DNA of 34,904 nucleotides, taken from a virus. Lineage: Duplodnaviria; Caudoviricetes. The stretch lies in IMG/VR virus record IMGVR_UViG_3300049070_000183, positions 1 to 34,904 of that record; one strand, given 5' to 3'. The notes below the pieces were generated by a model that saw only the letters and a program-made list of their open reading frames with translations, was not told the origin of the DNA and made no database searches. The translations under genes were made by a program, and so were the position numbers. Within the stretch, counting starts at the first letter, position 1, and every line of letters begins with the position of its first letter. Of the stretch, positions 3,054 through 33,224 are shown piece by piece.

Positions 3054-3097
3054 TACTATTTTTGCACATACAGTCACACTCTATTTTTGGAGGATTT

Positions 3098-3682
3098 ATG
3101 GACACCATCAGGGCGGGCATCTACGCGAGAGTTTCAACCAAAGATCAGTCAACCGATATGCAGCTTGACGCGCTGAGAAAATATTGCGCCCAACGTGGCT
3201 GGAAGATCGTCCACGAAGAGAGCGAGACGGCCAGCGGCGCTAAGACCACACGACCGAAGAGGGCCACAATGATCTTGCTTGCCAAGCAACGTAAGATCGA
3301 CACCATTGTCGTTTGGAAGCTCGACAGGTGGGGCCGGTCTACCGTTGATGTAATCAATACCGTTGAAGAATTGAAAGCCTATGGCGTGTCGTTCGTTTCT
3401 GTGACCGAAGCTATAGACCTAAGCACGCCAATGGGCCAAGCGTTTCTGACTATCCTTTCGGCTCTGGCTCAGATGGAAAGAGAATTGATCAAGGAGCGGG
3501 TCAAGGCGGGTGTCGAACGTTACCGGGAAATCAACGGCGAGTGGGGTAGACCGAAAAGCGCCAGGGCGAAGGCCGATCAAGTGAAAGAGCTTTACGCGCT
3601 GGCTTGGAGTAAAAGCAAGATTGCAAAAACTGTTGGAATAAGTAGGGCGTCTGTCATTCGGATTCTGGCAGACGCCTCTTGA
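3098..3682 (+). CDS. Small serine recombinase (resolvase/invertase family) with C-terminal HTH
   Basis: IYARVST catalytic Ser, VVWKLDRWGRS, ERELIKERVKAG, C-terminal IAKTVGISRASVIR; start moved to ATG 3098 after GGAGG. Confidence 0.95.
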   Translation: MDTIRAGIYARVSTKDQSTDMQLDALRKYCAQRGWKIVHEESETASGAKTTRPKRATMILLAKQRKIDTIVVWKLDRWGRSTVDVINTVEELKAYGVSFVSVTEAIDLSTPMGQAFLTILSALAQMERELIKERVKAGVERYREINGEWGRPKSARAKADQVKELYALAWSKSKIAKTVGISRASVIRILADAS

Positions 3683-12588: not shown

Positions 12589-13506
12589 CTAAACCCAAAG
12601 AATTTGAAAAGTATCCGCTCCGGTCGGCCACTGTGAAACCATCGTTTTGCCGTCTCGATTCGTAATGTCATCCCACTTGAGGATTTCTCGAACGACAAAA
12701 CGCATGAGCCTGACCGTTCCCTTTGCTGTGATCTCGCCACAGCGCAGAGGGGCGCGATAGCCAACCTGATAGCCGACGCGAGGGCGACCCATGATTTTTG
12801 TCGCCCATCCCTTGTCTTGGCCTTCACGCTCGAAATACAACCCCGCGTCATAGCGCCTCTTCTGTTCGGGATCGTTCAAGACTTTGTAGGCGCTGTTGAT
12901 CTTGATGAACATCTCTTGCGCGTCCGGTTCTTTGCACACGTCGGGATGCCATTGTAGGGAGAGACGGCGATAGGCTTTCTTGATCTCTTCCGGCGTGGCC
13001 TTCTCGAAAATGCACAGGACTTGATAAAGAGTCTGAAGACCATTGAGCGGCTGGCCTAATTCCCTCTTCTCAAAAAACGACAGCAAGACCTCTTCGGGAA
13101 ACTCGCTTGCCCATTGACCGTTGACTGAACCGTAAGCGGATTTGGTTTTGCCTCTGTCTTTTGTCGCGCCCAGGTATTCAAGAATAAAAGTCTTCTCTGT
13201 GACCTCCGGCGCCTGTGGCTTTTCGATTGGCAAATCGAGAGGGTAGCCAGTGTGCAGTCGGATAACATTGATAGCCATGCCGATCTCATCAGGAGAGATA
13301 AGCCAGACCTTTTGAGCTTTATGCCACGTAATCTCCGATGGCGGGATGGCTTTTTTGAGAGCGTCTTTCAATTTTTCATCCCACCCAAACCTGACGGCAT
13401 AATCAGCCCCGGCGACAGAGATAGACACAGTGGGATGGGCTTTTGGTCTGTTCTCAATGTTGTATTGCTCTCTCTTTTGAGCAATGAGTTTTGCGAAGTC
13501 AACCAT
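12589..13506 (-). CDS. J-domain (DnaJ-like) protein with N-terminal HARP-like domain
   Basis: LYQVL...ATPEEIKKAYRRLSLQWHPD...FIKINSAYKVL.DPEQKRRYD with intact HPD; N-terminal VRFGWDEKLKDALK..IP...WHKAQKVW; start moved to ATG 13506 after GGAGG. Confidence 0.88.
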   Translation of the reverse strand: MVDFAKLIAQKREQYNIENRPKAHPTVSISVAGADYAVRFGWDEKLKDALKKAIPPSEITWHKAQKVWLISPDEIGMAINVIRLHTGYPLDLPIEKPQAPEVTEKTFILEYLGATKDRGKTKSAYGSVNGQWASEFPEEVLLSFFEKRELGQPLNGLQTLYQVLCIFEKATPEEIKKAYRRLSLQWHPDVCKEPDAQEMFIKINSAYKVLNDPEQKRRYDAGLYFEREGQDKGWATKIMGRPRVGYQVGYRAPLRCGEITAKGTVRLMRFVVREILKWDDITNRDGKTMVSQWPTGADTFQILWV

Positions 13507-13729
13507 ATGAATCCTCCTTCCTGATTCCGGCCTCTTTAACAAACGCGGCAATGGCCTCATTGATATCGGTTGTAGAAATGACCAGCACGGCGACTGAGCG
13601 TTTTTTCTTGGCTGAGTAGACATTCCACATATAGCCAACTCGACACATCCACAGATAGCCGACATGCCCAATGGTGATGCGAACGGTTGGATATTTCAGC
13701 AAGTCAATCAGGTCGAAAGGTTCAGCCAT
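13499..13729 (-). CDS. Hypothetical protein
   Basis: Start at ATG 13729 after GGAGGGG. Confidence 0.6.
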   Translation of the reverse strand: MAEPFDLIDLLKYPTVRITIGHVGYLWMCRVGYMWNVYSAKKKRSVAVLVISTTDINEAIAAFVKEAGIRKEDSYG

Positions 13730-18195: not shown

Positions 18196-18591
18196 ATGAA
18201 ACCATTCAGGCGGGTTATACCCGCTATTGTTGTTGCGCTGGTAATCGCTTCCCTGCCGGCGCAAGCTGATAGACAGACTATCCCATGCCCCACGTCAGAG
18301 CCGATTGTTTACCCAATGTCCGCCGATCTCCGGCCGAAGATTATTCACCGGGAGAAGGCTGCTTATACTTGCAAGGCGAAAGAAGAGAAGATCGAAGGGC
18401 GGGTAATTTTACAGGTAGTGTTTAACAAAAACGGTAGGGTTACAGACATCATTCCGATAAAAGAATTGCCCCACGGACTGACTGAGCAAGCGATAGGAAC
18501 GGCATATCTGATCAAGTTTACTCCGGCAATGAAAGACGGAAAGCCGGTCAGCGTTCGCGGATCTCTTGAATACGTTTTCGATCTTTATTGA
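18196..18591 (+). CDS. Secreted stand-alone TonB C-terminal domain protein
   Basis: Signal peptide ending AQA; AYT..AKEEKIEGRVILQVVFNKNGRVTDI...LPHGLTEQAI..AYLIKFTPAMKDGKPVSV. Confidence 0.9.
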   Translation: MKPFRRVIPAIVVALVIASLPAQADRQTIPCPTSEPIVYPMSADLRPKIIHREKAAYTCKAKEEKIEGRVILQVVFNKNGRVTDIIPIKELPHGLTEQAIGTAYLIKFTPAMKDGKPVSVRGSLEYVFDLY

Positions 18592-19778: not shown

Positions 19779-19851
19779 ACTTTGTTTTCCCACTCCCAAA
19801 GGTTGAAGTTGATGTTGATGTGAATTGAAACTGCAAGAAAGTACCACAGCC

Positions 19852-20970
19852 ATGAAGATTCAAAAAGTCTGGCGCAAAGACCTGGGCGAATGGCGTTACA
19901 AAATTGACGTGACTGTAAACGGCCAGCGATTCAGGCGGGCTGACTTTGAAAAGAAATCAGATGCCAAAGACGCTATATCGGCATTGAGACTGAAAGCCAG
20001 GTCCGAACGCTATGGGCTTATTTCACCAAAGCCAAAGATCACACTCCGGGCATTGAAAAACAGTTTAGTGAAAGATCGAAAAGACATTCGGATCTTCACA
20101 GAGTTTATCGGACTGGCCGGCTCGGAGACTCTATTGACGGATCTCAACCGAGGTGACTGGAAGAAATATGTTGACTGTCTTCGGGCAAGAAAATGCAAAC
20201 CAGGGACAATCAATCGCTATATGGCCGAAGTATCAAGCATCTTGTCTTCGGCTTCAGAAAGATTCCCAGATCTGGACGAATGGCGTTGTCCTAAAATTCC
20301 GTGGCTGACTTGGCCACAAGGGAGACAGCGAGTTTTATCAAGGGAAGAGATTTCAAAAATCCTGTTTGCTCTCAGAGCCGAGCGCCAACACTACGAACAG
20401 TATTTCTCAGTCAAAAACAGAGCCGAGGTCTTAGACCTATTTCGGCTCATGCTTCTCACGGGCGCAAGGGAGGGGGAGATTTTAAATCTCAGACAAGACC
20501 AAATCTCATGGGACTGGCGAACGGTCAGGATTGAATCCCGAAAGGGCGGCGGGTCTGTTCGCGTTGTCCCGCTGTCCGATTCGGCTCTTGAAATCTTGCG
20601 ATCTCGTAATCATGGGCCAAGATTCTTTTCGATCAATAGGGATAAGCTCTATAGAGTCTTGAATCGAACGGGCGAAAGCTCCGGCGTGGCTTATGGCGAC
20701 AACATAGACAATGGTTGGGTGATTTACGATCTCCGGCATGTTGCGGCCACAGTCATGGAGAATGCCGGCATCCCATATAGCGCCGTCTCGGCAATTCTCG
20801 GCCACAAACGAAAAGACCAAACGGCCACTTATGCCCATGCTCAGTTGGACACGCTTAGGCGAGCGGTTGAAGTTCTCGAAACCCATTGTCGAGAGATTGA
20901 CGGGTTCTTTTCTGAAAAGCGGGCAAAATCAGGGCAGGGAGAGACAATGCTGCAGCAAGCATCCGGCTAG
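19852..20970 (+). CDS. int: Tyrosine recombinase / phage integrase
   Basis: N-terminal arm-binding-like domain, PGTINRYM, LLTGAREGEI (R), RKGG (K), YDLRH, ILGHK, TATYAH (Y). Confidence 0.95.
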   Translation: MKIQKVWRKDLGEWRYKIDVTVNGQRFRRADFEKKSDAKDAISALRLKARSERYGLISPKPKITLRALKNSLVKDRKDIRIFTEFIGLAGSETLLTDLNRGDWKKYVDCLRARKCKPGTINRYMAEVSSILSSASERFPDLDEWRCPKIPWLTWPQGRQRVLSREEISKILFALRAERQHYEQYFSVKNRAEVLDLFRLMLLTGAREGEILNLRQDQISWDWRTVRIESRKGGGSVRVVPLSDSALEILRSRNHGPRFFSINRDKLYRVLNRTGESSGVAYGDNIDNGWVIYDLRHVAATVMENAGIPYSAVSAILGHKRKDQTATYAHAQLDTLRRAVEVLETHCREIDGFFSEKRAKSGQGETMLQQASG

Positions 20971-22564: not shown

Positions 22565-22713
22565 GATTTGCCCTCCTTCGTGCTGAGAACTTTGCTTAAC
22601 ACCTCAGCACTAAAATCACAGAACAACCCCCAAAGCATCATGCTCCAATGAATGTTTGGAACGTTCGACATCCACAGCGAAGCCATTACAGTCGTGAAAA
22701 TCATCCTGTTCAT
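22561..22713 (-). CDS. 50-aa hypothetical peptide (absent from ORF track)
   Basis: MNRMIFTTVMASLWMSNVPNIHWSMMLWGLFCDFSAEVLSKVLSTKEGKS; ATGA overlap at both ends; GGAGGG upstream. Confidence 0.55.
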   Translation of the reverse strand: MNRMIFTTVMASLWMSNVPNIHWSMMLWGLFCDFSAEVLSKVLSTKEGKS

Positions 22714-24116
22714 TCTTCGCCCTCCTGACTCTCTTTGATAAGTTTTTGAAGCTCAGCCGTCCACGAAGCCGCATGAGGCAATGCCGCAACTTGCTCCCCG
22801 CCTGGAAGCCCTTTCACAAATTCAAGAACTTGCTCTGTCTCCATAGAGCCGAGCAAATCAATGTAGCCATCAATCGAATAGTCCGGCGCCTGTTCGTTAA
22901 TCGCATCGGCGTAGTTGACCAATTGCTGAAACGCCACTTGGACCGGGACATTGCGCTGACAGTTCTGAATCAGTCTTGTGAGGGCGTGTTGTTCGGGCGT
23001 GATGGCTGCTTGATTCTCAGATCCTTGTGCATTTGCCACAGGATCCTGAATCGCGCTAGCCCCTTGCCCTTCGGGTAGAGTAGGTAACGCTGGCCTAGAT
23101 TCTTGCGGGTTTGCGCCTTGCGTATTCGCCAAAGGCGGAACCGCTTGCGCTCCCATCTCCGCTTGCCCATTGTTTTGTCTCCCTGGAAACAGGCCACTAA
23201 AGCCGTTGAAGATTCGATCTATCGCTACTTGCACGATCTGTGCGGCCTGTCCTGATTTCACGGCGTCTCTTACTACATCCGCGTACCACGGCTCATTGTC
23301 TTTTCCATCTGAGCCGCCGAATCGTTTGATCACAGATCCCACAACCGTTTCGATCACTTCAGGCTGTTTCAAAATCGCGCTCGATAGAATCTCTTCTTCG
23401 CTGCGCTGTTGTTGCTGTGGTTGCTCAGGGGCAAAGCCGTAAGCCTCGCGCATCAACTTGGCCATCTCAAGTTGTTCTTTCAAAGCCTCGCGCTGAGTTT
23501 TCATGATGTCCTTGATCGACATCGGTACTTGCTGCGCTTGGCCGTCGCCGTTGGCCGATTGATAAACCACTTGCGGGGAAGTGGGATCATTCGGATTGAC
23601 GTGTTGAATGTTTGGCGTTGTAGGGCCAAGTCGTTTTTCCCATGACGCGACAACCTTACTGCCAGGACTCTTTCCGGGCATGTACATTCGCAACGTAAAC
23701 CAATATGTTCCCGCTCCCCACTTGCGAGCAACATCAAGATAATCTTCATTCACGATCTGTTCTTTAGTGCAGATGTACCTTGTCAGAAATTCTTTGTCGG
23801 CCCATGAGCCTCCCTCCGATGACTCGCTATGCAAATATCGCTCGATGGAAAGCCTTAACTGAGCGGCTGGCGCGATGTTGTGTTGCGCAAGAAGCTCTCG
23901 CAATTTTGTATGTTCATCTTTTACTTTTCGACGTGGCCTGTTTTCAATAGAGTCCCCGTCAAGCCCCTCCTCATCTTCTTCGGGCGCTTCTTCAACGGGG
24001 TGTAGTTCAACCCACTCAGTTTTGTGTTTAACTTCTCTGACCTTGATTTGATCGTTTTCGTCAGGCGGCAGTAGTTCGACTTCGACAGGCTGTTTCTTCG
24101 GTTTTCCTCGCGGCAT
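22710..24116 (-). CDS. Large Gln/Glu-rich protein of unknown function
   Basis: 468 aa from ATG 24116 after GGAAGGAG; folded segments separated by low-complexity linkers; no Walker motifs. Confidence 0.8.
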   Translation of the reverse strand: MPRGKPKKQPVEVELLPPDENDQIKVREVKHKTEWVELHPVEEAPEEDEEGLDGDSIENRPRRKVKDEHTKLRELLAQHNIAPAAQLRLSIERYLHSESSEGGSWADKEFLTRYICTKEQIVNEDYLDVARKWGAGTYWFTLRMYMPGKSPGSKVVASWEKRLGPTTPNIQHVNPNDPTSPQVVYQSANGDGQAQQVPMSIKDIMKTQREALKEQLEMAKLMREAYGFAPEQPQQQQRSEEEILSSAILKQPEVIETVVGSVIKRFGGSDGKDNEPWYADVVRDAVKSGQAAQIVQVAIDRIFNGFSGLFPGRQNNGQAEMGAQAVPPLANTQGANPQESRPALPTLPEGQGASAIQDPVANAQGSENQAAITPEQHALTRLIQNCQRNVPVQVAFQQLVNYADAINEQAPDYSIDGYIDLLGSMETEQVLEFVKGLPGGEQVAALPHAASWTAELQKLIKESQEGEE

Positions 24117-24135
24117 TTGGCTCCTTCCCACGTAG

Positions 24136-24169
24136 AGCGAAAAATATTTTTCGCTGAGTTTGGTGTCAA
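24136..24169 (-). promoter_or_regulatory. Leftward sigma70-like promoter overlapped by a perfect 20-bp palindrome
   Basis: TTGACA-N17-TATTTT on - strand; AGCGAAAAAT/ATTTTTCGCT at 24136-24155. Confidence 0.7.
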
Positions 24170-24347
24170 GAATCAACTGATAATTAAGTTGATGAGATGT
24201 ATAGCTAATCTCGAGTCAACCTAACGAACGTAAAGCATATACGCCTTAAACCTAACAAATGTCAACCTTTAGGGGCTTGACACCTAAGGTTCTTCCGTGG
24301 TTTCTTGCGCCCGATGTTGGCTGTTTGGTCATCGCAGAGGTCAAGTT

Positions 24348-24947
24348 ATGACGGTTCGAGGCGCGGCTTTTCCCACGACCAGCGGTCAACATCTCGCTGT
24401 CAAAATCGCCGCGCCTCCCGTCTCCCATTCAATCGAGTATAGACCCCTAATCGACGGAGACGCGGGAACGTTTCAAACCTTAGACGCGATGGTCGACGCC
24501 GTGCTTGGTCGCATTGGGCCTGACTATTCCGGCTTCAATGATCCATTCAATATCAAAGCCGCTCAGCAGATTGTTTCTTCAGCGTCCAGCCAGGATGAAA
24601 GGGCGCAAATAACCGCTCTGTTCAATTGGGTGATTGCGAACATCGCCTACGAACCGCACCCAATCAATCAACAGACATTACAAGATGCCAGACGGACACT
24701 TGAGTTAAAGAGAGGCGATTGCGTTTCGCTCAGCGTCCTACTCGCAACATTACTTGCTTCACTTTTTTACGAACCGCGTTTTGTGGCTCAGTGGCCAAAC
24801 GGAGAAGAGGCGTCCCACGTTTATGTTGAAGTTTTGTTATCTAACGGTGAATGGCTCGCCTTAGACGCTGTAGCCAAAGACGAGCCAATTGGATGGCGTC
24901 AACCGAAACTAGACGGCGGCTTTGAGTACGCCCAGGAGATTTTGTAA
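24348..24947 (+). CDS. Transglutaminase-like (papain-fold) enzyme, possible protease
   Basis: RTLELKRGDCVSLSVLLATLL (Cys), SHVYVEV (His), WLALDA (Asp); first gene of virion operon. Confidence 0.9.
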   Translation: MTVRGAAFPTTSGQHLAVKIAAPPVSHSIEYRPLIDGDAGTFQTLDAMVDAVLGRIGPDYSGFNDPFNIKAAQQIVSSASSQDERAQITALFNWVIANIAYEPHPINQQTLQDARRTLELKRGDCVSLSVLLATLLASLFYEPRFVAQWPNGEEASHVYVEVLLSNGEWLALDAVAKDEPIGWRQPKLDGGFEYAQEIL

Positions 24948-25306
24948 TGGATGACTACTTTGAATTTTGGGGATTGCCTTATACCTACGGGATTGTCCCC
25001 GTTGACGAATCGCCATCGAGACAGCCGACATCAAGCGCGCCGTCTTATGAGACGCCCTATTGGATAGACACCATCAATCGAGGGATTGAGCGGGCCGCGC
25101 AAGTGGCTACTGTCGCAGTCGGCGGCTATCCGTCGTATCCAAGCTATCCAGCGCCTACGCCGCAACCAACTCCCATGCCTATGCCTGCACCGGCGCCGGG
25201 AGTTCAACCGCAATCACCGGGGAGCGGGATTCAACTTTCACAAACAACGCTGATGCTCTTAGTTGGGGGCGTGTTGTTGTTCATGCTCGGCAAGAGGGGG
25301 CGATGA
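24947..25306 (+). CDS. Pro-rich protein with C-terminal TM anchor (putative virion membrane protein)
   Basis: PAPTPQPTPMP linker; TLMLLVGGVLLFMLGKRGR. Confidence 0.8.
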   Translation: MDDYFEFWGLPYTYGIVPVDESPSRQPTSSAPSYETPYWIDTINRGIERAAQVATVAVGGYPSYPSYPAPTPQPTPMPMPAPAPGVQPQSPGSGIQLSQTTLMLLVGGVLLFMLGKRGR

Positions 25307-25309
25307 CGT

Positions 25310-25477
25310 GTGGCGACTTATTTTGACAAGCGAGAGGGAAGGGAAAAGGCCGTGCCCGATTGCTCGAAACACGGCTTGCAATGGAATCCCAATTCGCAAC
25401 GTTGCGAACGGCCAATGTTTTCAGGGCTTCTGACGCTTGGCTTTGTCGGCTTATTGATCTGGCTTTTTAGGAAATAG
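25310..25477 (+). CDS. 55-aa Cys-pair protein with C-terminal TM (absent from ORF track)
   Basis: GTG start after GAGGGGG; MATYFDKREGREKAVPDCSKHGLQWNPNSQRCERPMFSGLLTLGFVGLLIWLFRK. Confidence 0.7.
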   Translation: MATYFDKREGREKAVPDCSKHGLQWNPNSQRCERPMFSGLLTLGFVGLLIWLFRK

Positions 25478-25479
25478 TC

Positions 25480-26556
25480 ATGGGAATGGAGCAAGGCGGC
25501 TACATAGAGGGGGACGAACAGGGCACGTATGGTTACGGCGGCGGGGGAGACTTCAATCTCAGCATGGGCGGGGGCGGTGATAGTTTTGCCATTGATTACG
25601 CGGCGGATTATGGCGGGGCATATAACTTCACAGGCGATTACAGCGGAGTTGGCACAGGCGCGGAGTATGGCGATTCAGGCTATCAACCGGGCGGCGATCT
25701 CTATGGAGCGTACGTTGATTACTACACAGAATCGGGCTTTGATCTCACAACGGCGATGGAACTGGCCGCACAGGACGCGGCAGCGGGATCGGTCGAGATT
25801 GCAACAAGCGAAAGAGGGCTACTACCTGACGCCTTAGGGCCGGAGACTTACTATGGTCTGCCATATATTCCCGATTCGTTCCTGACGCCTTACACGCCGA
25901 TCTTTCCCGATCTTCCCGCGCCGCTTCCACCAATCGTTACGCCGATTATTCCGTTTACAGTTCCCGCGCCTCCGCAAGTTCCATTGCCGCAGACGCCCGG
26001 TACAGGGCCGATTCCGATTGCTCCGGGCCTGCCTCCGGCATGCCCCACTGGTCAATATCACCCTTATCCAATCGGGCATCCACAGCAAAACGTCTGCATC
26101 CCGTTTCCGTCTGCTCAAACAGGGTCAAGACCGCAGCAACAACAACGACCGTCAGGATCGAGTGGAGGGGCATCATCAACGCCAAAGCCGCCACAACAGC
26201 AGCAACAAGGGCAATGCCCCACGGGTTACTGCAAACACCCAACGGGGCAGTGCATGCCGATCCCGCAAGGATACTTTCGACACCCGACGACACAAGTTTG
26301 CTCGCCACGTTGCACGACGCCGGGGACTGTCTTTGACCAATCAAGGGGGCAATGCGTTCCGGTCGCTCAGGCCGTCAACCCTTTGCCCGGATCGCAAGCA
26401 CATGGGACTGAATTACCCGAAGGCGCTGAAGGCTTGCTTGATGAATTATCGAAACTGCCGTGGTGGGTATGGTTGGCTCTTGGAGGCTTGCTGCTATTGA
26501 GCCGGGATGGTGAGGACGGCAAGAAAACGACAGTCACTTATAGGAGGGCGCGTTAA
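25480..26556 (+). CDS. Gly/Tyr-, Pro- and Cys-repeat protein with C-terminal TM
   Basis: Acidic GY-rich N-terminus, Pro-rich middle, CPTG...C repeats, LPWWVWLALGGLLLL. Confidence 0.85.
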   Translation: MGMEQGGYIEGDEQGTYGYGGGGDFNLSMGGGGDSFAIDYAADYGGAYNFTGDYSGVGTGAEYGDSGYQPGGDLYGAYVDYYTESGFDLTTAMELAAQDAAAGSVEIATSERGLLPDALGPETYYGLPYIPDSFLTPYTPIFPDLPAPLPPIVTPIIPFTVPAPPQVPLPQTPGTGPIPIAPGLPPACPTGQYHPYPIGHPQQNVCIPFPSAQTGSRPQQQQRPSGSSGGASSTPKPPQQQQQGQCPTGYCKHPTGQCMPIPQGYFRHPTTQVCSPRCTTPGTVFDQSRGQCVPVAQAVNPLPGSQAHGTELPEGAEGLLDELSKLPWWVWLALGGLLLLSRDGEDGKKTTVTYRRAR

Positions 26557-27269
26557 TGGGCTGCTGTGTCGGCTGTCAATCGGGGATGGGTTGTTGCGAT
26601 GACTATAGCCTTGCTGGTCTGTATGGCTTGAGCGGCTTGAATGGCCTGATGGGCGAACTAGCGACAGGCTCACGCGTCAGGGTGGGCTTGGAGTTTGAAT
26701 TTAGTCATGCGTATGACCCTGACGAAACAGAGGCGATGGGCGCCGGACCTATTCAAAATCTGTTTTATGACCAATTCGGCCCACCGACATTCAAGGACAC
26801 GCGCGTTACGGTTCAAATGCCGACGTTTTGGAGCGATGGTTATGTGACTGTCGAGGCTACAAGCATGACGCCATTGCCGTATGCCAGCGTCTTTGGGCAA
26901 ATGGTCGAGAACGCCTTTAAGAGCTATCTGCCCCGTTACATCTGGGAGAAGACCCATGAGACGTTGGTTGACTACGCCCCGCCGACTCCTAACGCGCAAC
27001 CCGCTGGGCCTCCGCAAATATGCGATTTGAGTCAATTAGGATTGCAAGAATACTTCGACTGTCAGCTAGGCCGTGGCAGATGGGCGAAGCAACAAACACA
27101 GAATCAAAATCAACCCGGTCAACCGTCGAAGTGCGCGGGGATGTCGCCCGGTGATTGGATTGCCTGCCAGCTGGGGATTACGCCGACTGCCGGCATAGCG
27201 GCGGGAGCAATTGGATCACTGGTTTTAGTCGGCGGGGTTCTAGCGCTTGTGGTGTTTTTGAAGCGATGA
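26556..27269 (+). CDS. Putative virion membrane protein with C-terminal TM
   Basis: Cys-rich N-terminus, GL-x repeat, two C...CQLG repeats, hydrophobic C-terminus ending KR. Confidence 0.85.
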   Translation: MGCCVGCQSGMGCCDDYSLAGLYGLSGLNGLMGELATGSRVRVGLEFEFSHAYDPDETEAMGAGPIQNLFYDQFGPPTFKDTRVTVQMPTFWSDGYVTVEATSMTPLPYASVFGQMVENAFKSYLPRYIWEKTHETLVDYAPPTPNAQPAGPPQICDLSQLGLQEYFDCQLGRGRWAKQQTQNQNQPGQPSKCAGMSPGDWIACQLGITPTAGIAAGAIGSLVLVGGVLALVVFLKR

Positions 27270-28369
27270 AGCTAACCGATCAAGAGCAAGTGATCTTGAA
27301 AGCGATTGGGAACGACGTAGCTGAAGTCTCCCGCGTGATCAAAGCCGTTGGCTATCCGAAGGCGACAGTAAAAAAAGTCTTGGTCGGGCTGAATGAAAAG
27401 GGAATCGTCGCCCTCCATCGCCACGATTGGCCGAAATCACTAGAGCGTGAGCAACGCAAGCTCATGGTCAAGATCGGGAGCAATTACTACAACGCGGTAA
27501 GTGTGATGAGAAGAAACCCTAAACAATCGAAAGGCAAGACGGCGCTGAAGAAAACAGGGCGAGCGCTAAAGGGCTTCGCTCGCGGGACGCTTCAGTCTGG
27601 CGCTGAAATTCTAGGAGCGGGAGCGATGGCATTGAATCCAACTCGAAAACGAAAGAAGGCGACGAAGAAGAAGCGAAACAAGACCGTTATCAAAGCTAAG
27701 CGTGTTGTCGTATTGAATCCGAAAAAGAAAAGGGTCAAGCGCAATGCTTCAAGAACTGTGTCTACCGCTAAGACTGCGAAACGTCGGGCCAGGTCTTCTA
27801 GTCAAAATAGTCGCAAGAAAGCAACGCCCCGTATTCGATCCGTGGCTAAGGCTCGCAAGGCTCCGGTTAAGAGAGCTTCTAAAAGAACGCTCAAGAAAAG
27901 CTCCGGGCTGTTGAAGAAGGGGCGCAAGCGAAACAACCCTTCGGCTGAATCAATCCGCAAAGAGTTTGCCGGATCTGTCAACGGCGAGCGTGACTTGTTT
28001 TTCCCGCAAGGGACGCCATCGGGGAAGCTCGCCAAGTTGGGCAAGCTCGTTTCGATCACAACAGAAGAGGGAACTATCAAACCTGTCTCCGGCTCGGCGT
28101 GGCTGTGCGCTGATACGAAAGAACGGCTTCATATCGGATCAACATCGAACGCGCCTTTGTTTAGCGGGCCTGCGCATAGTTTTGGGAAGGTTTCAAAAGT
28201 TGAATATGAAAGCTCAAAGCCGCACTTAGGGTATCGAGGACCGATCATTTGGTTTCACCACATGGGCGAAGGCGGGGGAAGTCGCCCTTCGCTATACGCA
28301 GATGGAAAGGGTGGTTTGAAATTCAAAGGGGGCAACTACCGATTAACGAAGAGAGGTATCGAGGGCTAG
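27266..28369 (+). CDS. Lys/Arg-rich putative DNA-condensing core protein with N-terminal wHTH-like domain
   Basis: Start at ATG 27266 (ATGA); LTDQEQVILKAI...KATVKKVLVGLNEKGIV; long basic region with RRNP, LNP, LNP, RNNP. Confidence 0.8.
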   Translation: MKLTDQEQVILKAIGNDVAEVSRVIKAVGYPKATVKKVLVGLNEKGIVALHRHDWPKSLEREQRKLMVKIGSNYYNAVSVMRRNPKQSKGKTALKKTGRALKGFARGTLQSGAEILGAGAMALNPTRKRKKATKKKRNKTVIKAKRVVVLNPKKKRVKRNASRTVSTAKTAKRRARSSSQNSRKKATPRIRSVAKARKAPVKRASKRTLKKSSGLLKKGRKRNNPSAESIRKEFAGSVNGERDLFFPQGTPSGKLAKLGKLVSITTEEGTIKPVSGSAWLCADTKERLHIGSTSNAPLFSGPAHSFGKVSKVEYESSKPHLGYRGPIIWFHHMGEGGGSRPSLYADGKGGLKFKGGNYRLTKRGIEG

Positions 28370-28995
28370 CCATGACGCTTCAGATATTCAATCGCGGCGG
28401 TCAGAAGTTCGGCGCTTTCTCTAAAGCTACCCAATGCTTGATTGCAAAAACTGCACAGCAAGCCGCGCACTTTGCCGGTTGTGTGATTGTGGTCTACCGC
28501 CAACGAAAAACCCTCTATTTGAGATTGGCGACATATTGCGCACAGATGACCTTGCGCCTCCAACATCATTTCATATTCAGTCAGCGTAATGCCGTATTGC
28601 CTACGGAGCCAAGAATTTTTGTACGCCCGGTGACCTCCTCTTTTATAAGACTCTCGTTTAAGTCTACGGCGTTGTTCACGGACATGAGGCAAGAGATTGC
28701 GAGTCGTGGTGCATGTTTTACATTGATTGGTCAATCCGGTTGGAGTTGTTTTGTTCGACCAAAACTCAGAGGCGTCTTTAATGGTTTTGCAGCTTTGACA
28801 CCGCTGTTTGGTAATTTGAGGCTTTGGTGTACGCCCACGCCGGAGCACATTACTTCTATTAACAGCCCTTGCACATTCAATGCAAAAGCGCATCAGTCCA
28901 TATTTACCTCTACGATCTTTCCAAAATTCAGTGACCGGCTTTTCCGACTTACATTTACTGCAAACTTTGGTAGATGGTATGGTGGGCTTAGTCAT
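28366..28995 (-). CDS. Recombination endonuclease VII-family (free-standing homing-type) nuclease
   Basis: YGITLTEYEMMLEAQGHLCAIC...LAVDHNHTTGKVRGLLCSFCNQALG; two N-terminal CxxC...CxxC repeats. Confidence 0.93.
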   Translation of the reverse strand: MTKPTIPSTKVCSKCKSEKPVTEFWKDRRGKYGLMRFCIECARAVNRSNVLRRGRTPKPQITKQRCQSCKTIKDASEFWSNKTTPTGLTNQCKTCTTTRNLLPHVREQRRRLKRESYKRGGHRAYKNSWLRRQYGITLTEYEMMLEAQGHLCAICRQSQIEGFSLAVDHNHTTGKVRGLLCSFCNQALGSFRESAELLTAAIEYLKRHG

Positions 28996-29180: not shown

Positions 29181-29933
29181 ATGTCTCTCATAAGAAGGCG
29201 CGTAGTGAACCCGGCTCCGTCCGTGCTCGCTCTCGTCAACAAAACAAAGAGAGGTAAAACAATGGCTACTCGCAAAAGGAGACGTAGCACAAAGCGGCGC
29301 GCTGTACGGCGTACCCGCTCACGTAACCCGGTCAATCCGGTGAATCCGGCTCGCAGGCGGCGGCGCAGATCCAGACGGTCAACCGTTTATGCCCGTCGTC
29401 GCAATCCGATCAATCCCACTCGACGCCGCAGGCGCATTGGTCGCCGCAGGGCAAGGCGCAACCCGGTGACGGGCGTATTGGGTCGGGCCATTCCATTGGT
29501 CATCGGCTCGGCTGTGATTGGCGCAACCGCTCCATTCACGGCTCAAATCGTCGGGAGATTCGCGCCACAGTTGTTGGGGAATCCCATCGGCGTTGCGGCA
29601 ACGACCTTTGGAACTGGATGGGCGTTGTCACTACTCGCCGGAGCTTTCGCGTTTACGCGCAAGTGGAAAGACGACGTGATGTTGGCCGGCGCCGTGTTGG
29701 CAGGCGGTCAACTGTTCACGGCGTATGTTGCCCCGATGATTCCTCGACTTGGTGGAGGGCGGGGGGGAAACGGAATGGGCCGGCGTTACAACCGCAACGG
29801 AATGATGTCCGGCATTGGTGTAATGACCTCTATCCCGCCAGGTATGGCGACTCTTCCAGCGCCGCAAGGTAATAACAACGGCATGCAAGGGATTGGCGTG
29901 ATGACGGCGATCCCTCCGGGGATAGCGCGTTAG
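29181..29933 (+). CDS. Arg-rich protamine-like protein with hydrophobic C-terminal half (putative core/membrane protein)
   Basis: Start at ATG 29181 after GGGGGAGG; poly-Arg blocks separated by RNP/VNP/INP; about three hydrophobic helices; C-terminal GIGVMTxIPPG repeat. Confidence 0.85.
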   Translation: MSLIRRRVVNPAPSVLALVNKTKRGKTMATRKRRRSTKRRAVRRTRSRNPVNPVNPARRRRRRSRRSTVYARRRNPINPTRRRRRIGRRRARRNPVTGVLGRAIPLVIGSAVIGATAPFTAQIVGRFAPQLLGNPIGVAATTFGTGWALSLLAGAFAFTRKWKDDVMLAGAVLAGGQLFTAYVAPMIPRLGGGRGGNGMGRRYNRNGMMSGIGVMTSIPPGMATLPAPQGNNNGMQGIGVMTAIPPGIAR

Positions 29934-29969: not shown

Positions 29970-30815
29970 ATGTATCCAATGTACGACCAGTCGCCGCAGT
30001 TCAATTTTACCGGCTCATCAATGCCCGGACTGCCGACTACGCTTAATCACATCAATCCGGGCTATTACGCTCAACTCGCGGGCTTTCTCTCGGAGAAATA
30101 CGGCAGGCCGGAAAATGCGCGTCTCGCGTCAATCAACGGTGTTGAGCTTTACGACACGTTGAGAGTTGATACAGGCGCGCTACCTCTGCGCGAGTTCATC
30201 TTTTTTCAAACTCCGGTCGGTCAAAACCAAAACTTGCTGGTCGCTGGTACGGCCTATCAGAAACAAGAGATCGACGTCCATCCGTGGATCGTCCAGGGCG
30301 GACAATTGGCCCTCGGCTATGAGGCGTTGATTTGGAATGTTGGCGTACAGGTCCATATCGTGCAAGCGAATGACGCCACGCTGCAAGCGGCGGGCAATAC
30401 GATCAACCTGACAGCCACGACAGGCACACTTGCCGCCGAGGTCGCCGCCGATCCGCAAAGGATGGGCAACTTGATGCGGGCCTTTCAAGAGGGCTTGTGG
30501 TTCGAGTTCTTCATCAATCAAACAGGCTTCGAGAACGGGCCGCTTTGGAGATTCCCGGCCGGTATCTACGGCATCAGCGGACAGAACGCGATTGCCGATA
30601 CGACGACAGCGGGGGCTGATGGCCTCAGCGCGGACGGTTGGGCGAACAACGGCTTCGGCGTGGCTTATCAGTTCCCGGTGATGCGGCATCTGCCGAGTCA
30701 AACCAAATTCGGCATGCGGCTGAAGATTCAAAACTCGTTTACGACTCCGGCCGGCTTCTCGACTCGTATCGTTGTGACGCTCGGCGGAATCGGCATACAA
30801 CCAATCACAGGCTGA
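29970..30815 (+). CDS. Probable major capsid protein, single jelly-roll-like (inferred)
   Basis: Doubled RBS AGGAGAAGGAG, terminator right after, alternating beta-strand pattern, C-terminal FPVMRHLPSQTKFGMRL...IVVTLGG. Confidence 0.65.
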   Translation: MYPMYDQSPQFNFTGSSMPGLPTTLNHINPGYYAQLAGFLSEKYGRPENARLASINGVELYDTLRVDTGALPLREFIFFQTPVGQNQNLLVAGTAYQKQEIDVHPWIVQGGQLALGYEALIWNVGVQVHIVQANDATLQAAGNTINLTATTGTLAAEVAADPQRMGNLMRAFQEGLWFEFFINQTGFENGPLWRFPAGIYGISGQNAIADTTTAGADGLSADGWANNGFGVAYQFPVMRHLPSQTKFGMRLKIQNSFTTPAGFSTRIVVTLGGIGIQPITG

Positions 30816-30844
30816 TTTCTGGCGTTCGGTTCTTCATCGCTAGT

Positions 30845-30888
30845 TGTGGGGCGGGGCTTTTGCCTTGTCTCGCCCCACAGTTTTTTTT
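30845..30888 (+). terminator. Intrinsic terminator after putative MCP
   Basis: TGTGGGGCGGGGC/GTCTCGCCCCACA stem then GT8. Confidence 0.85.
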
Positions 30889-30899
30889 CAGGAGAGAGC

Positions 30900-31151
30900 A
30901 TGAACCCGACTAAAAAAATAGGCCGATACTTAGTGCCGATTGGATCTGTGGCCGTGATCGAAGAGAGAAACACGTCAGGCTGGCGCAGGCTCTTATTGTG
31001 GCGAAAACCGGGCTACAACGCGCTGCTCAACAATGGTCGAGTGATTCATTTCACTGAAGCCGAAAAAGCCGAATACGAAAAGGCTGTTGAATGGCATGTC
31101 GTGACTCTCGAATGGTACGGCGCGGCCAGAGGCATGGGGCTGAGAGGCTAA
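30900..31151 (+). CDS. Small hypothetical protein
   Basis: Start at ATG 30900 after AGGAG. Confidence 0.7.
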   Translation: MNPTKKIGRYLVPIGSVAVIEERNTSGWRRLLLWRKPGYNALLNNGRVIHFTEAEKAEYEKAVEWHVVTLEWYGAARGMGLRG

Positions 31152-31165
31152 AGGAGAATTTCATT

Positions 31166-31639
31166 ATGTGGTTTTTTACGAAGTATATTTACAAGATCCT
31201 CGATTTCTACAGAACGCATTTGATCTTCTACGACACGATTCCCATAGGCTTTACCGGGGTCGCAAGTGAACGTCCTGCGCCGGTCTTTACCAACGAAGTG
31301 TCAGAGGACGTGTTGTATTTCGGCGGGCAATTGTCTTTCAGTGTGGCCGACGTGCTGGTTAGGATAAAGTCCATCAGTCCGCAATACGAATGGATGGTCA
31401 ATGACGATCCCGCTCCACAGGATACGCCGGCTAATGCCGTGTTTGGCGTGTTCAGTCAAGCTCTCCCGCTTATTCCGTGGGTGTCTCCGTTCTTTCTAAA
31501 AAAGAATGGCCGTTTGCAATTGCAATGGACCAACAGCGCGGCGGCGGCGGTTACGGGCGGCTTCGTGACGCTGCATGGTCTTCGATTGACCAATCCGATT
31601 AATGGGTCCGGTTGGGATTACAGCGTGGGCTTGGTTTGA
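31166..31639 (+). CDS. Putative single jelly-roll-like capsid protein
   Basis: Start at ATG 31166 after AAGGAG; PFFLKKNGRLQLQWTN...VTLHGLRL. Confidence 0.6.
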   Translation: MWFFTKYIYKILDFYRTHLIFYDTIPIGFTGVASERPAPVFTNEVSEDVLYFGGQLSFSVADVLVRIKSISPQYEWMVNDDPAPQDTPANAVFGVFSQALPLIPWVSPFFLKKNGRLQLQWTNSAAAAVTGGFVTLHGLRLTNPINGSGWDYSVGLV

Positions 31640-31641
31640 TT

Positions 31642-32694
31642 ATGAACAACAATCAAGCGACTAAAACTTGTCGGATAGACACAGGGGATTTTGTCGGCTC
31701 GGCTCTCACAGGGCCGGAATGGACGCCTTACGCGCAAAGAATAGCCGATCATTACCCTGTTCAACTTCTGTGGTATCTGACCAAGCAACAAACGCTTGTG
31801 GTCGCGGATCCTAGAAACCTTCAGGCGCCGGTAACGCAGACCATAAGGCCACAACTATACGACGTGTTGATTTTAGGGATGTCGGCGCTGATTGTCGGAG
31901 AAGCCCTGCTGGACAACGGCAATTACATCTATCTTCAGATCACGGATCTTGAAACGGGTATTCCGTGGGTCGCCCCGAACATGATTGGCTACGCCCCTGT
32001 CCCCGCGTTCGCCGGGATCAATGCCGATCCGTCAACCGGGACTTTCTTTCCGATGCCCGTTTTGAAACTGCCTGAAGCCTATTTTCTGCCGAAGGGGACA
32101 AGGCTCAAGCTCGATTGGTTTCCCATTCAGGAAACCGATGGCGATCCGGTGAATTTAAACGTTCGCCTCACAATGATCGGAGTGCAATTGATCAATCACG
32201 CTCCGGGCTTCAAAGCGCCGACTCACGTAACCATGCCTAATGGCGACACTATTCCTGTAGGGTCGAGATTGCCGTGGTTCGGCTGTGTGCCTTTCGGCCA
32301 GAGAGACATAATTCTAGGCCAAAGAATATTGCAGGACTTCTCATTGCAGGACGACGAACAGGCTTTACAGTTTTTGCCGCCACTCGAATGCAACCTTGAA
32401 TTGCATGACGCTTACGCCAATTTTCTAGCTCAAACAGTCCGGCCCGCGGCTAAGGTCAATCTCAAACTTAAATTGAACGACATGCGGGACAACGGCGACT
32501 GGACGCCGGAGTTTTCTCCATCACCCGCAATATTCGGCAATGAGGAGCAAGTCTATCCCGCAAGACCTTTCGCCAAACCTCATCTAGTTAGAAAGGGCCA
32601 CAGGCCGGCATTGGTGATGTTCAACAATAGCGGCGCCGGGGCATTGAATCGTGGGACTGTGACTTTCCGGGGCGTCCGTCTTTGTGAGTATTGA
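31642..32694 (+). CDS. Putative tandem (double) jelly-roll-like capsid protein
   Basis: Two related halves ending AYFLPKGTRLKLDW...LTMIGVQL and PHLVRKGHRPALVMFN...VTFRGVRL. Confidence 0.6.
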   Translation: MNNNQATKTCRIDTGDFVGSALTGPEWTPYAQRIADHYPVQLLWYLTKQQTLVVADPRNLQAPVTQTIRPQLYDVLILGMSALIVGEALLDNGNYIYLQITDLETGIPWVAPNMIGYAPVPAFAGINADPSTGTFFPMPVLKLPEAYFLPKGTRLKLDWFPIQETDGDPVNLNVRLTMIGVQLINHAPGFKAPTHVTMPNGDTIPVGSRLPWFGCVPFGQRDIILGQRILQDFSLQDDEQALQFLPPLECNLELHDAYANFLAQTVRPAAKVNLKLKLNDMRDNGDWTPEFSPSPAIFGNEEQVYPARPFAKPHLVRKGHRPALVMFNNSGAGALNRGTVTFRGVRLCEY

Positions 32695-32696
32695 TT

Positions 32697-33224
32697 ATGC
32701 TTCAACTGCAACATATGCGTAGGATCGTCCAAGCCTGCTTTCCCGAAAACAATCAGGAGGCGAAGGAAATATGGAACGACATCAAACCCATTAAATTCGG
32801 GGCGACTCAGCCGTGGATTACCGATGCGGCCATTACGCTAGCGATATATCAAGTTCCCGAAGACGCGGCATATCTATTGATTTTACGGACTGAATGTTAT
32901 GTCACTACGTTTGATCCAACGGCTGTTGGATTCGGGCAATTCTCTCCGCCTCCTGACGGCACGGCGTCATGGCAATACACTGATGTCGGGGTTGGCAATA
33001 CTCAATATAGGATCACTCCGGTTATGGACATGAACATTCTTCTTGACTGCGAGGAGTTTCTATTCGCTAAGGGCGATCATCTAGTGACATTGGTTGCTTC
33101 AGTCACAGCCCCAGACGCCGTGGAGAGATTCATCAGAACGCTTGTTTACGGGTATCTGATCAGCGCTGAGATTGCGGGTAGGCTTGGTGGAGACGAAACG
33201 GTCTATTTCAGTTTTACTGTGTGA
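32697..33224 (+). CDS. Putative beta-sandwich virion protein (penton/minor capsid candidate)
   Basis: IYQVPEDAAYLLILR...FLFAKGDHLVTL...TLVYGYLI. Confidence 0.55.
   Translation: MLQLQHMRRIVQACFPENNQEAKEIWNDIKPIKFGATQPWITDAAITLAIYQVPEDAAYLLILRTECYVTTFDPTAVGFGQFSPPPDGTASWQYTDVGVGNTQYRITPVMDMNILLDCEEFLFAKGDHLVTLVASVTAPDAVERFIRTLVYGYLISAEIAGRLGGDETVYFSFTV

Follow-up and report, generated by a model that had tools for sequence, protein, structure and literature searches.

A predicted double jelly-roll protein with single-domain relatives in the putative capsid block of a circular, tailless-type bacterial virus

The DNA analysed here, referred to as the window, is one entire virus record (IMG/VR record IMGVR_UViG_3300049070_000183, 34,904 nt). 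Its 127-nt direct terminal repeat marks it as a complete circle of ~34.8 kb, the genome of a temperate phage of tailless type that encodes a tyrosine integrase, a primase-polymerase/helicase, several homing-type nucleases, a lytic transglycosylase and a transglutaminase-like protein. Our subject is a module of four clustered genes, named by their start positions 29970, 31166, 31642 and 32697 (Table 1). No family for any of the four was found in Pfam or PHROGs, their homologues have no Pfam family common to them, profile searches of PDB sequences with the module proteins returned nothing, and among the cultured phages of INPHARED none matched 29970 or 31642.

The first-pass annotation had predicted jelly rolls from recurring C-terminal motifs, and all ten of the motifs that it quoted are present in the four open reading frames (ORFs). 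The structure models agree with this prediction for two of the proteins: the model of 29970 is one jelly roll, and that of 31642, a confident model, shows two jelly rolls side by side. For 29970 the best matches were tied between SPV1, VP17 of P23-77 and a plant satellite virus. SPV1 (PDB 6oj0) took first place when one model was searched three times, clusters of PM2 P2_N and P2_C in the Atlas at 0.75-0.76 are a lead only, and a BFVD search returned only circovirus-type single jelly rolls at an uninformative template-modelling (TM) score of ~0.2. The top Foldseek matches of 31642 were P3 of PR772/PRD1 and the major capsid protein (MCP) of STIV. Judging from its sequence, 31166 would be a single jelly roll as well, and a jelly-roll-like sandwich is possible for 32697, whose Atlas model is poor (predicted local distance difference test 0.44) and reaches TM 0.5-0.6 to beta-sandwich proteins.

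Table 1. Features of the putative capsid block, with positions in the window
Feature	Position	Strand	Basis
Likely major capsid protein, predicted single jelly roll with insertions, 281 aa	29970..30815	+	Model and fold searches
S1, single-domain paralogue of both 31642 halves, 157 aa; penton candidate	31166..31639	+	hhalign 98.4-98.8%
Tandem double jelly-roll protein (predicted), 350 aa	31642..32694	+	Model, fold searches, profile comparison
S3, conserved beta-rich protein, 175 aa	32697..33224	+	Low-confidence Atlas model; paralogy undetected
Intrinsic-terminator-like hairpin and T8, 3' of the coat gene	30845..30888	+	-25.7 kcal/mol
Conserved small protein, 83 aa, between coat gene and minor jelly rolls	30900..31151	+	tblastn synteny
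Arg-rich protein, repeated NP motifs, hydrophobic C-half; candidate nucleocapsid/membrane-tether protein	29181..29933	+	Composition, synteny
Lys/Arg-rich protein, conserved C-terminal domain; candidate DNA-condensing core protein	27266..28369	+	K+R 0.24
Three candidate inner-membrane proteins with C-terminal hydrophobic anchors (24947, 25480, 26556)	24947..27269	+	Kyte-Doolittle
Transglutaminase-like protein, Cys-His-Asp motifs; candidate maturation protease	24297..24947	+	PF01841, E 2e-14

Are these domains related to each other? Five had been proposed as paralogues, and three of them hold: at the level of sequence profiles, the two halves of 31642 and 31166 are proven paralogues. In profile-profile comparisons over 120-142 columns, the N half matched 31166 with a probability of 98.8% and the C half with 98.4%, while the halves matched each other with 95.5% (E 1.6e-8, 132 columns). 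Reversed-profile controls reached at most 51% (n=36), and one row of the 31166 alignment that was actually a tandem C half had been removed beforehand. Pairwise identity within this trio is 17-24% in the window. A hidden Markov model (HMM) of the last three strands gave 54-63 bits on the trio domains when run on 229 window ORFs, partly by construction because these domains are in the HMM. The same HMM scored 29970 at 4.4 bits, below two ORFs outside the annotated module genes (5.1 and 4.9), and the profile probability of 29970 against the trio is just 6-22%. Its motif does lie in register with the last strands of the trio (score 23, where 40 column shuffles gave at most 14.3). However, column shuffling destroys strand periodicity, so that this test cannot separate homology from a shared fold, and we regard the kinship of 29970 to the trio as suggestive. 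The protein 32697 showed no profile similarity to 29970, 31166 or either half of 31642 and fell outside the top 15 of the last-strand HMM. Five-way paralogy was therefore rejected, as the signal is weak for 29970 and lacking for 32697.

Which of these proteins builds the shell? Expression signals and family-wide presence favour 29970, which is very probably the main coat protein, alone or, less likely, together with 31166. The first-pass annotation had cast a single-domain protein as the major shell and the tandem as a minor component, and its supporting observations survive in part. Scored against a generic anti-Shine-Dalgarno sequence, the ribosome-binding site (RBS) of 29970 (-9.3 kcal/mol) is the strongest among the four module genes (the others -8.8, -4.1 and -2.2 kcal/mol), although not of the whole block, since those of 29181 (-11.3) and 26556 (-10.7) are stronger. 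The coat gene also has its own terminator-like hairpin, with a 13-bp stem (30845-30879) followed by T8, which a strict scanner did not list. Across related loci (counts here and below include near-duplicates), a strong RBS precedes 29970 in 28 of 33 and the tandem in 0 of 25 (at or below -7), and in all 17 paired loci the coat gene exceeds the tandem gene in RBS strength and has fewer rare codons. A terminator-like element lies within 120 nt of the stop codon of 29970 in 19 of 40 loci, of the tandem in 1 of 24, of 31166 in 0 of 37 and of 32697 in 9 of 22. Moreover, each of the nine terminal-repeat relatives has a 29970 gene, and four of them lack the tandem. Two observations speak against this assignment: in comparisons with three close relatives conservation is higher for 31166 than for 29970, and in the clades with a single-domain gene at the position of the tandem the coat gene does not have the strongest RBS. 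Beside these results we note that the coat gene is 57-60% identical to its counterparts in three relatives (G002, G003 and G005) and its neighbours 29181 and 31166 are 66-86% identical, a difference in sequence that hints at coat exchange between lineages.

How did the tandem arise? Gene order is conserved as basic proteins, coat, S1, one slot and S3. In the 36 loci that carry both a coat gene and 32697, the slot holds a tandem in 29 and a single-domain protein, S2, in seven. What is new here is that the slot holds single-domain genes in two further clades, four terminal-repeat records of 18-23 kb among them. These genes encode 198-206 aa in L043, L044 and L048 and 127-139 aa in L084-L088. One tandem locus (L022) has an additional separate 107-aa N-terminal piece. 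The tandem profile found only single-domain matches in all five outgroup records, and in one genome (G009) S1 and S2 share a reading frame, with one TAA and three codons between them, and the profile aligns across both. The two halves differ in their affinities. Outgroup S1 proteins score higher against the N half than against the C half (93 vs 76), and outgroup S2 proteins score higher against the C half (62 vs 51). The N domain (~31705-32211) carries the N-terminal helix of S1 and a similar C-terminal extension; the C domain (~32254-32691) has no such helix, like S2. Plain identities between domains fail to discriminate the origins of the halves. Searches for longer relatives of 31166 found none, but were insensitive, as a known tandem that should have matched did not.

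The simplest history, which we consider probable, is a duplication of S1 and fusion of the copy with S2, in the direction from single to double. Because the halves exist unfused in relatives, the tandem is likely the trace of a fusion from single to double that took place within a virus, a step over which there has been long debate in work on capsid evolution; it is likely a lineage-specific duplication-plus-fusion product and a low-copy part of the vertex. The trees, all quick and without bootstrap, cover 28 of the 36 loci plus 18 outgroup proteins (coat tree), 26 rows (a second tree) and 20 loci (domain tree). In the domain tree the single proteins of L043 and L048 group with the tandem C halves (SH-aLRT 98), and the S2 proteins of L084-L088 sit unresolved on a long branch. 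In the coat tree the L084 clade falls well outside and L043/L048 lie in a polytomy with the tandem clades; a single tandem clade was neither rejected nor demonstrated (p-AU 0.17). Gene-context scans of distant coat clades gave nothing or false matches, none of 16 query proteins matched L067, and L080 and L081, considered as family loci, were rejected as unrelated and tailed-phage-like.

In the opposite direction the tandem would be the ancestral form. Two lineages would have lost its N domain, which left them with single S2 genes, and no fusion would be recorded. Two points count here against the fusion history: the MCP tree needs two state changes, with L043/L048 placed among the tandem clades of the polytomy, and just one well-separated outgroup clade has a known gene context. 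Yet the most distant clade of known context (L082-L088, coat ~36% identical) has single genes, and an N half with the helix and C-terminal extension of S1 is what would be expected of an S1 copy. We consider an ancestral tandem rather unlikely. A different objection concerns the shell itself, which could be built by 31642 and not by 29970, as in a double jelly-roll virus. The tandem is of the size of the STIV and PRD1 coats that head its fold matches, and motorless double jelly-roll viruses are known (FLiP and the Odin group, PMC5894146). This proposal has to contend with the weak RBS of the tandem, its position downstream of the terminator, the terminal-repeat relatives that keep 29970 and have no tandem, and the missing profile link to known double jelly-roll coats, which according to PMC8812541 can all be connected by comparing profiles; we judge it very improbable.

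Could 29970 share the shell with 31166 instead? The two would then be co-major proteins forming heterohexamers, as VP17 and VP16 do in P23-77 of the Halopanivirus type. Such an arrangement appears unlikely to us, as a terminator separates the two genes in many loci, the two proteins have no profile link, and the FtsK-type ATPase that helvetiaviruses encode (PMC8812541) was not found. Finally, the tandem might be no shell part, but a receptor protein that binds or cleaves carbohydrates, related to the cellular DUF2961/GH172 proteins. The fold scores for that relationship are tied with those for viral coats, no Pfam or PDB profile links it to the tandem, and 31166, the viral gene next to it, is a clear paralogue of both halves, which leaves this the least probable of the alternatives. 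Taken together, we lean towards a capsid block in which the shell is mainly 29970, no motor is detected and 31642 is a low-copy vertex part derived from S1 by duplication and fusion.

The sole credible Walker A motif in the window belongs to the primase-helicase. FtsK (PF01580) was found neither in the window nor in any of five complete 34-40 kb relatives, whereas 12 of 14 control genomes matched, and the P-loops of these five relatives are replicative. In four terminal-repeat records of 18-23 kb no credible P-loop was seen (Pfam covered 38 of their 71 long ORFs). Altogether, neither the window nor any of nine terminal-repeat relatives yielded a packaging ATPase, though a divergent one could be missed.

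We compared the block with known systems. The virus is not a tailed phage: unlike in Caudoviricetes, no HK97 coat or other capsid family, terminase or portal was matched among 29 window ORFs (Pfam and PHROGs), and no HK97 coat, terminase, portal or packaging family among 117 ORFs of at least 190 aa from the five complete relatives (Pfam). PHROG head and tail labels that do occur in the window all stem from the transglycosylase domain. It is not a halopanivirus either, since no FtsK-HerA ATPase was detected as known from Halopanivirales/Singelaviria (P23-77, SH1, HHIV-2 and HCIV-1); it also likely has one major coat and not two, although 31166 could be a second.

A close counterpart is Portogloboviridae, viruses of hyperthermophilic Sulfolobales archaea with a hexamer-forming single jelly-roll MCP, no packaging ATPase, a circular dsDNA of ~20 kb, a layer of lipid on the inside and a core of nucleoprotein (PMC8459092). 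The window resembles them in its one predicted single jelly-roll coat candidate, further small jelly-roll proteins, circular dsDNA, the lack of a detected packaging ATPase and, from the genes alone, candidates for basic core proteins and membrane anchors. It differs in its size of 35 kb (17.7-22.6 kb in the outgroup records), its integrase and primase-helicase, a 281-aa coat with insertions, a double jelly-roll minor protein, and a bacterial host, likely Blastocatellia, with a lytic transglycosylase. A profile search of PDB sequences found no similarity to SPV1 proteins. The virus works like a portoglobovirus and yet is not one, because its host lies outside the Sulfolobales. That host is only likely acidobacterial, of the Blastocatellia, since 29970 homologues are annotated in metagenome-assembled genomes of this class and yet one 4.7-kb contig falls in a Pseudomonadota bin. 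The 29970 family is broad, with 165 proteins in one search and 88 clusters at 50% identity in another, and relatives carry lysozymes. Four of its genomes (G006, G007, G008 and G010; L089-L093) have 17.7-22.6 kb, terminal repeats and a phage lysozyme, are close in size to SPV1 and hold no credible P-loop NTPase.

With the MCPs of Bamfordvirae the tandem shares, in its model, two side-by-side jelly rolls. It differs from these coats in being likely of low copy and confined to one part of the family, and from PRD1/PR772 P3, STIV, PM2 P2, FLiP and DUF2961/GH172 in that its halves are recognisable by sequence as paralogues of a free-standing neighbour. An hmmsearch of 31642 against PDB and Pfam found no link to double jelly-roll coats or to DUF2961/GH172. 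The vertex of PR772/PRD1, described in PMC6750898 as a P31-P5 heteropentamer, mixes paralogous small domains, the model that we propose by analogy for S1, the tandem and S3; a sequence link is missing, and the PR772/PRD1 vertex has no fused double domain.

How might such a particle assemble? The gene layout would fit the way in which SPV1 is built, with a shell, a membrane and a core of nucleoprotein. The basic proteins with NP repeats would compact the circular DNA, the compacted core would be wrapped by a membrane carrying anchored proteins, and 29970 hexamers, presumed by analogy to SPV1 VP4, would close around it. We find it fairly likely that the shell assembles in this way around a DNA core in a lipid membrane, without ATP-driven packaging. 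The terminator after 29970 would lower the output of S1, the tandem and S3, which would build the twelve vertices. Tentatively, 31166 may be the penton, and together with 31642 and 32697 it may form a mixed ring similar to PR772 P31/P5, located at the fivefold vertices or next to them. The tandem would then stand for two adjacent ring subunits and fix their order. The next choice, which we think doubtful, is a trimeric special hexon. Equally doubtful is the more far-reaching idea that the family is a widespread, undescribed one of soil-type Acidobacteria phages that keeps the supposedly ancestral SPV1 design, and that a de novo tandem forms pseudo-hexameric trimers beside single jelly-roll hexamers in one shell.

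The relevance that had been claimed for this locus to how double jelly-roll coats originated is real but limited, for the fusion is most likely independent, in a minor protein and without sequence link to the PRD1, PM2 and STIV coats. It demonstrates that such a fusion can occur in viruses, not that PRD1-type coats arose likewise. According to PMC8812541, the duplication and fusion behind double jelly-roll coats are placed in cellular proteins, and a motorless one-coat virus like SPV1 is argued to be the ancestral state of the single jelly-roll realm. The present family has two states in bacteria, with homology that can be traced: a design like that of SPV1, and a double jelly roll whose unfused halves occur in relatives. 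With both states available, the fusion is directly testable, either as a replacement of two ring subunits or as a PRD1-hexon-like trimer. If the far-reaching idea given above is true, with a kept SPV1 design and a de novo tandem in one shell, the family would re-enact the step from single to double in a living system that is open to experiment, a step that the current model assigns to cells and not to viruses. The family also cautions that a double jelly roll detected through its fold is not enough on its own to assign a virus to Varidnaviria. In the main texts of the mostly open-access literature searched, neither this family nor a bacterial portoglobovirus-like group nor a sequence-traceable viral single-to-double fusion is described.

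The remainder of the block (Table 1) supplies the other candidates of this assembly. The protein 29181 has K+R 0.20, D+E 0.01 and eight NP motifs and is syntenic in relatives. The 27266 protein was matched in all nine terminal-repeat relatives; among relatives it varies between 287 and 896 aa (L088:185-1048 and L070:11724-14411), with a conserved C-terminal domain of ~145 aa. Kyte-Doolittle maxima lie near the C-termini of 24947 (1.83), 25480 (1.36) and 26556 (2.55). The ends of 26556-27269 and 29181-29933 carry repeated GLG/GMG/GIG motifs (for example GMMSGIG and GMQGIG) that are conserved in relatives. The transglutaminase-like protein 24297, with GDC, HVY and ALD motifs, was likewise matched in nine of nine, and its gene lies near those of the basic proteins 27266 and 29181 with repeated [RK]..NP motifs. 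The adenovirus protease matures core proteins, and by analogy 24297 may do the same here. The 83-aa protein has no family in Pfam or PHROGs and is absent from the L043/L048 and L084 clades.

On the minus strand, a 488-aa protein of no known family (22710-24176), a candidate assembly or packaging factor, is encoded in the direction leading away from the structural block and is kept in all five large relatives; by eye, similar-looking proteins of 421-441 aa stand at the equivalent place in the small genomes. An endonuclease VII-type gene (28366-28995, minus strand) is an antisense insertion in the structural block, and similar ones lie near the coat gene of G004. Elsewhere in the window we noted a probable serine resolvase (3062-3682), tyrosine integrase (19825-20970), DnaJ-domain protein (12589-13671) and TonB C-terminal-like protein (18196-18591), the resolvase and TonB labels being assigned by eye.
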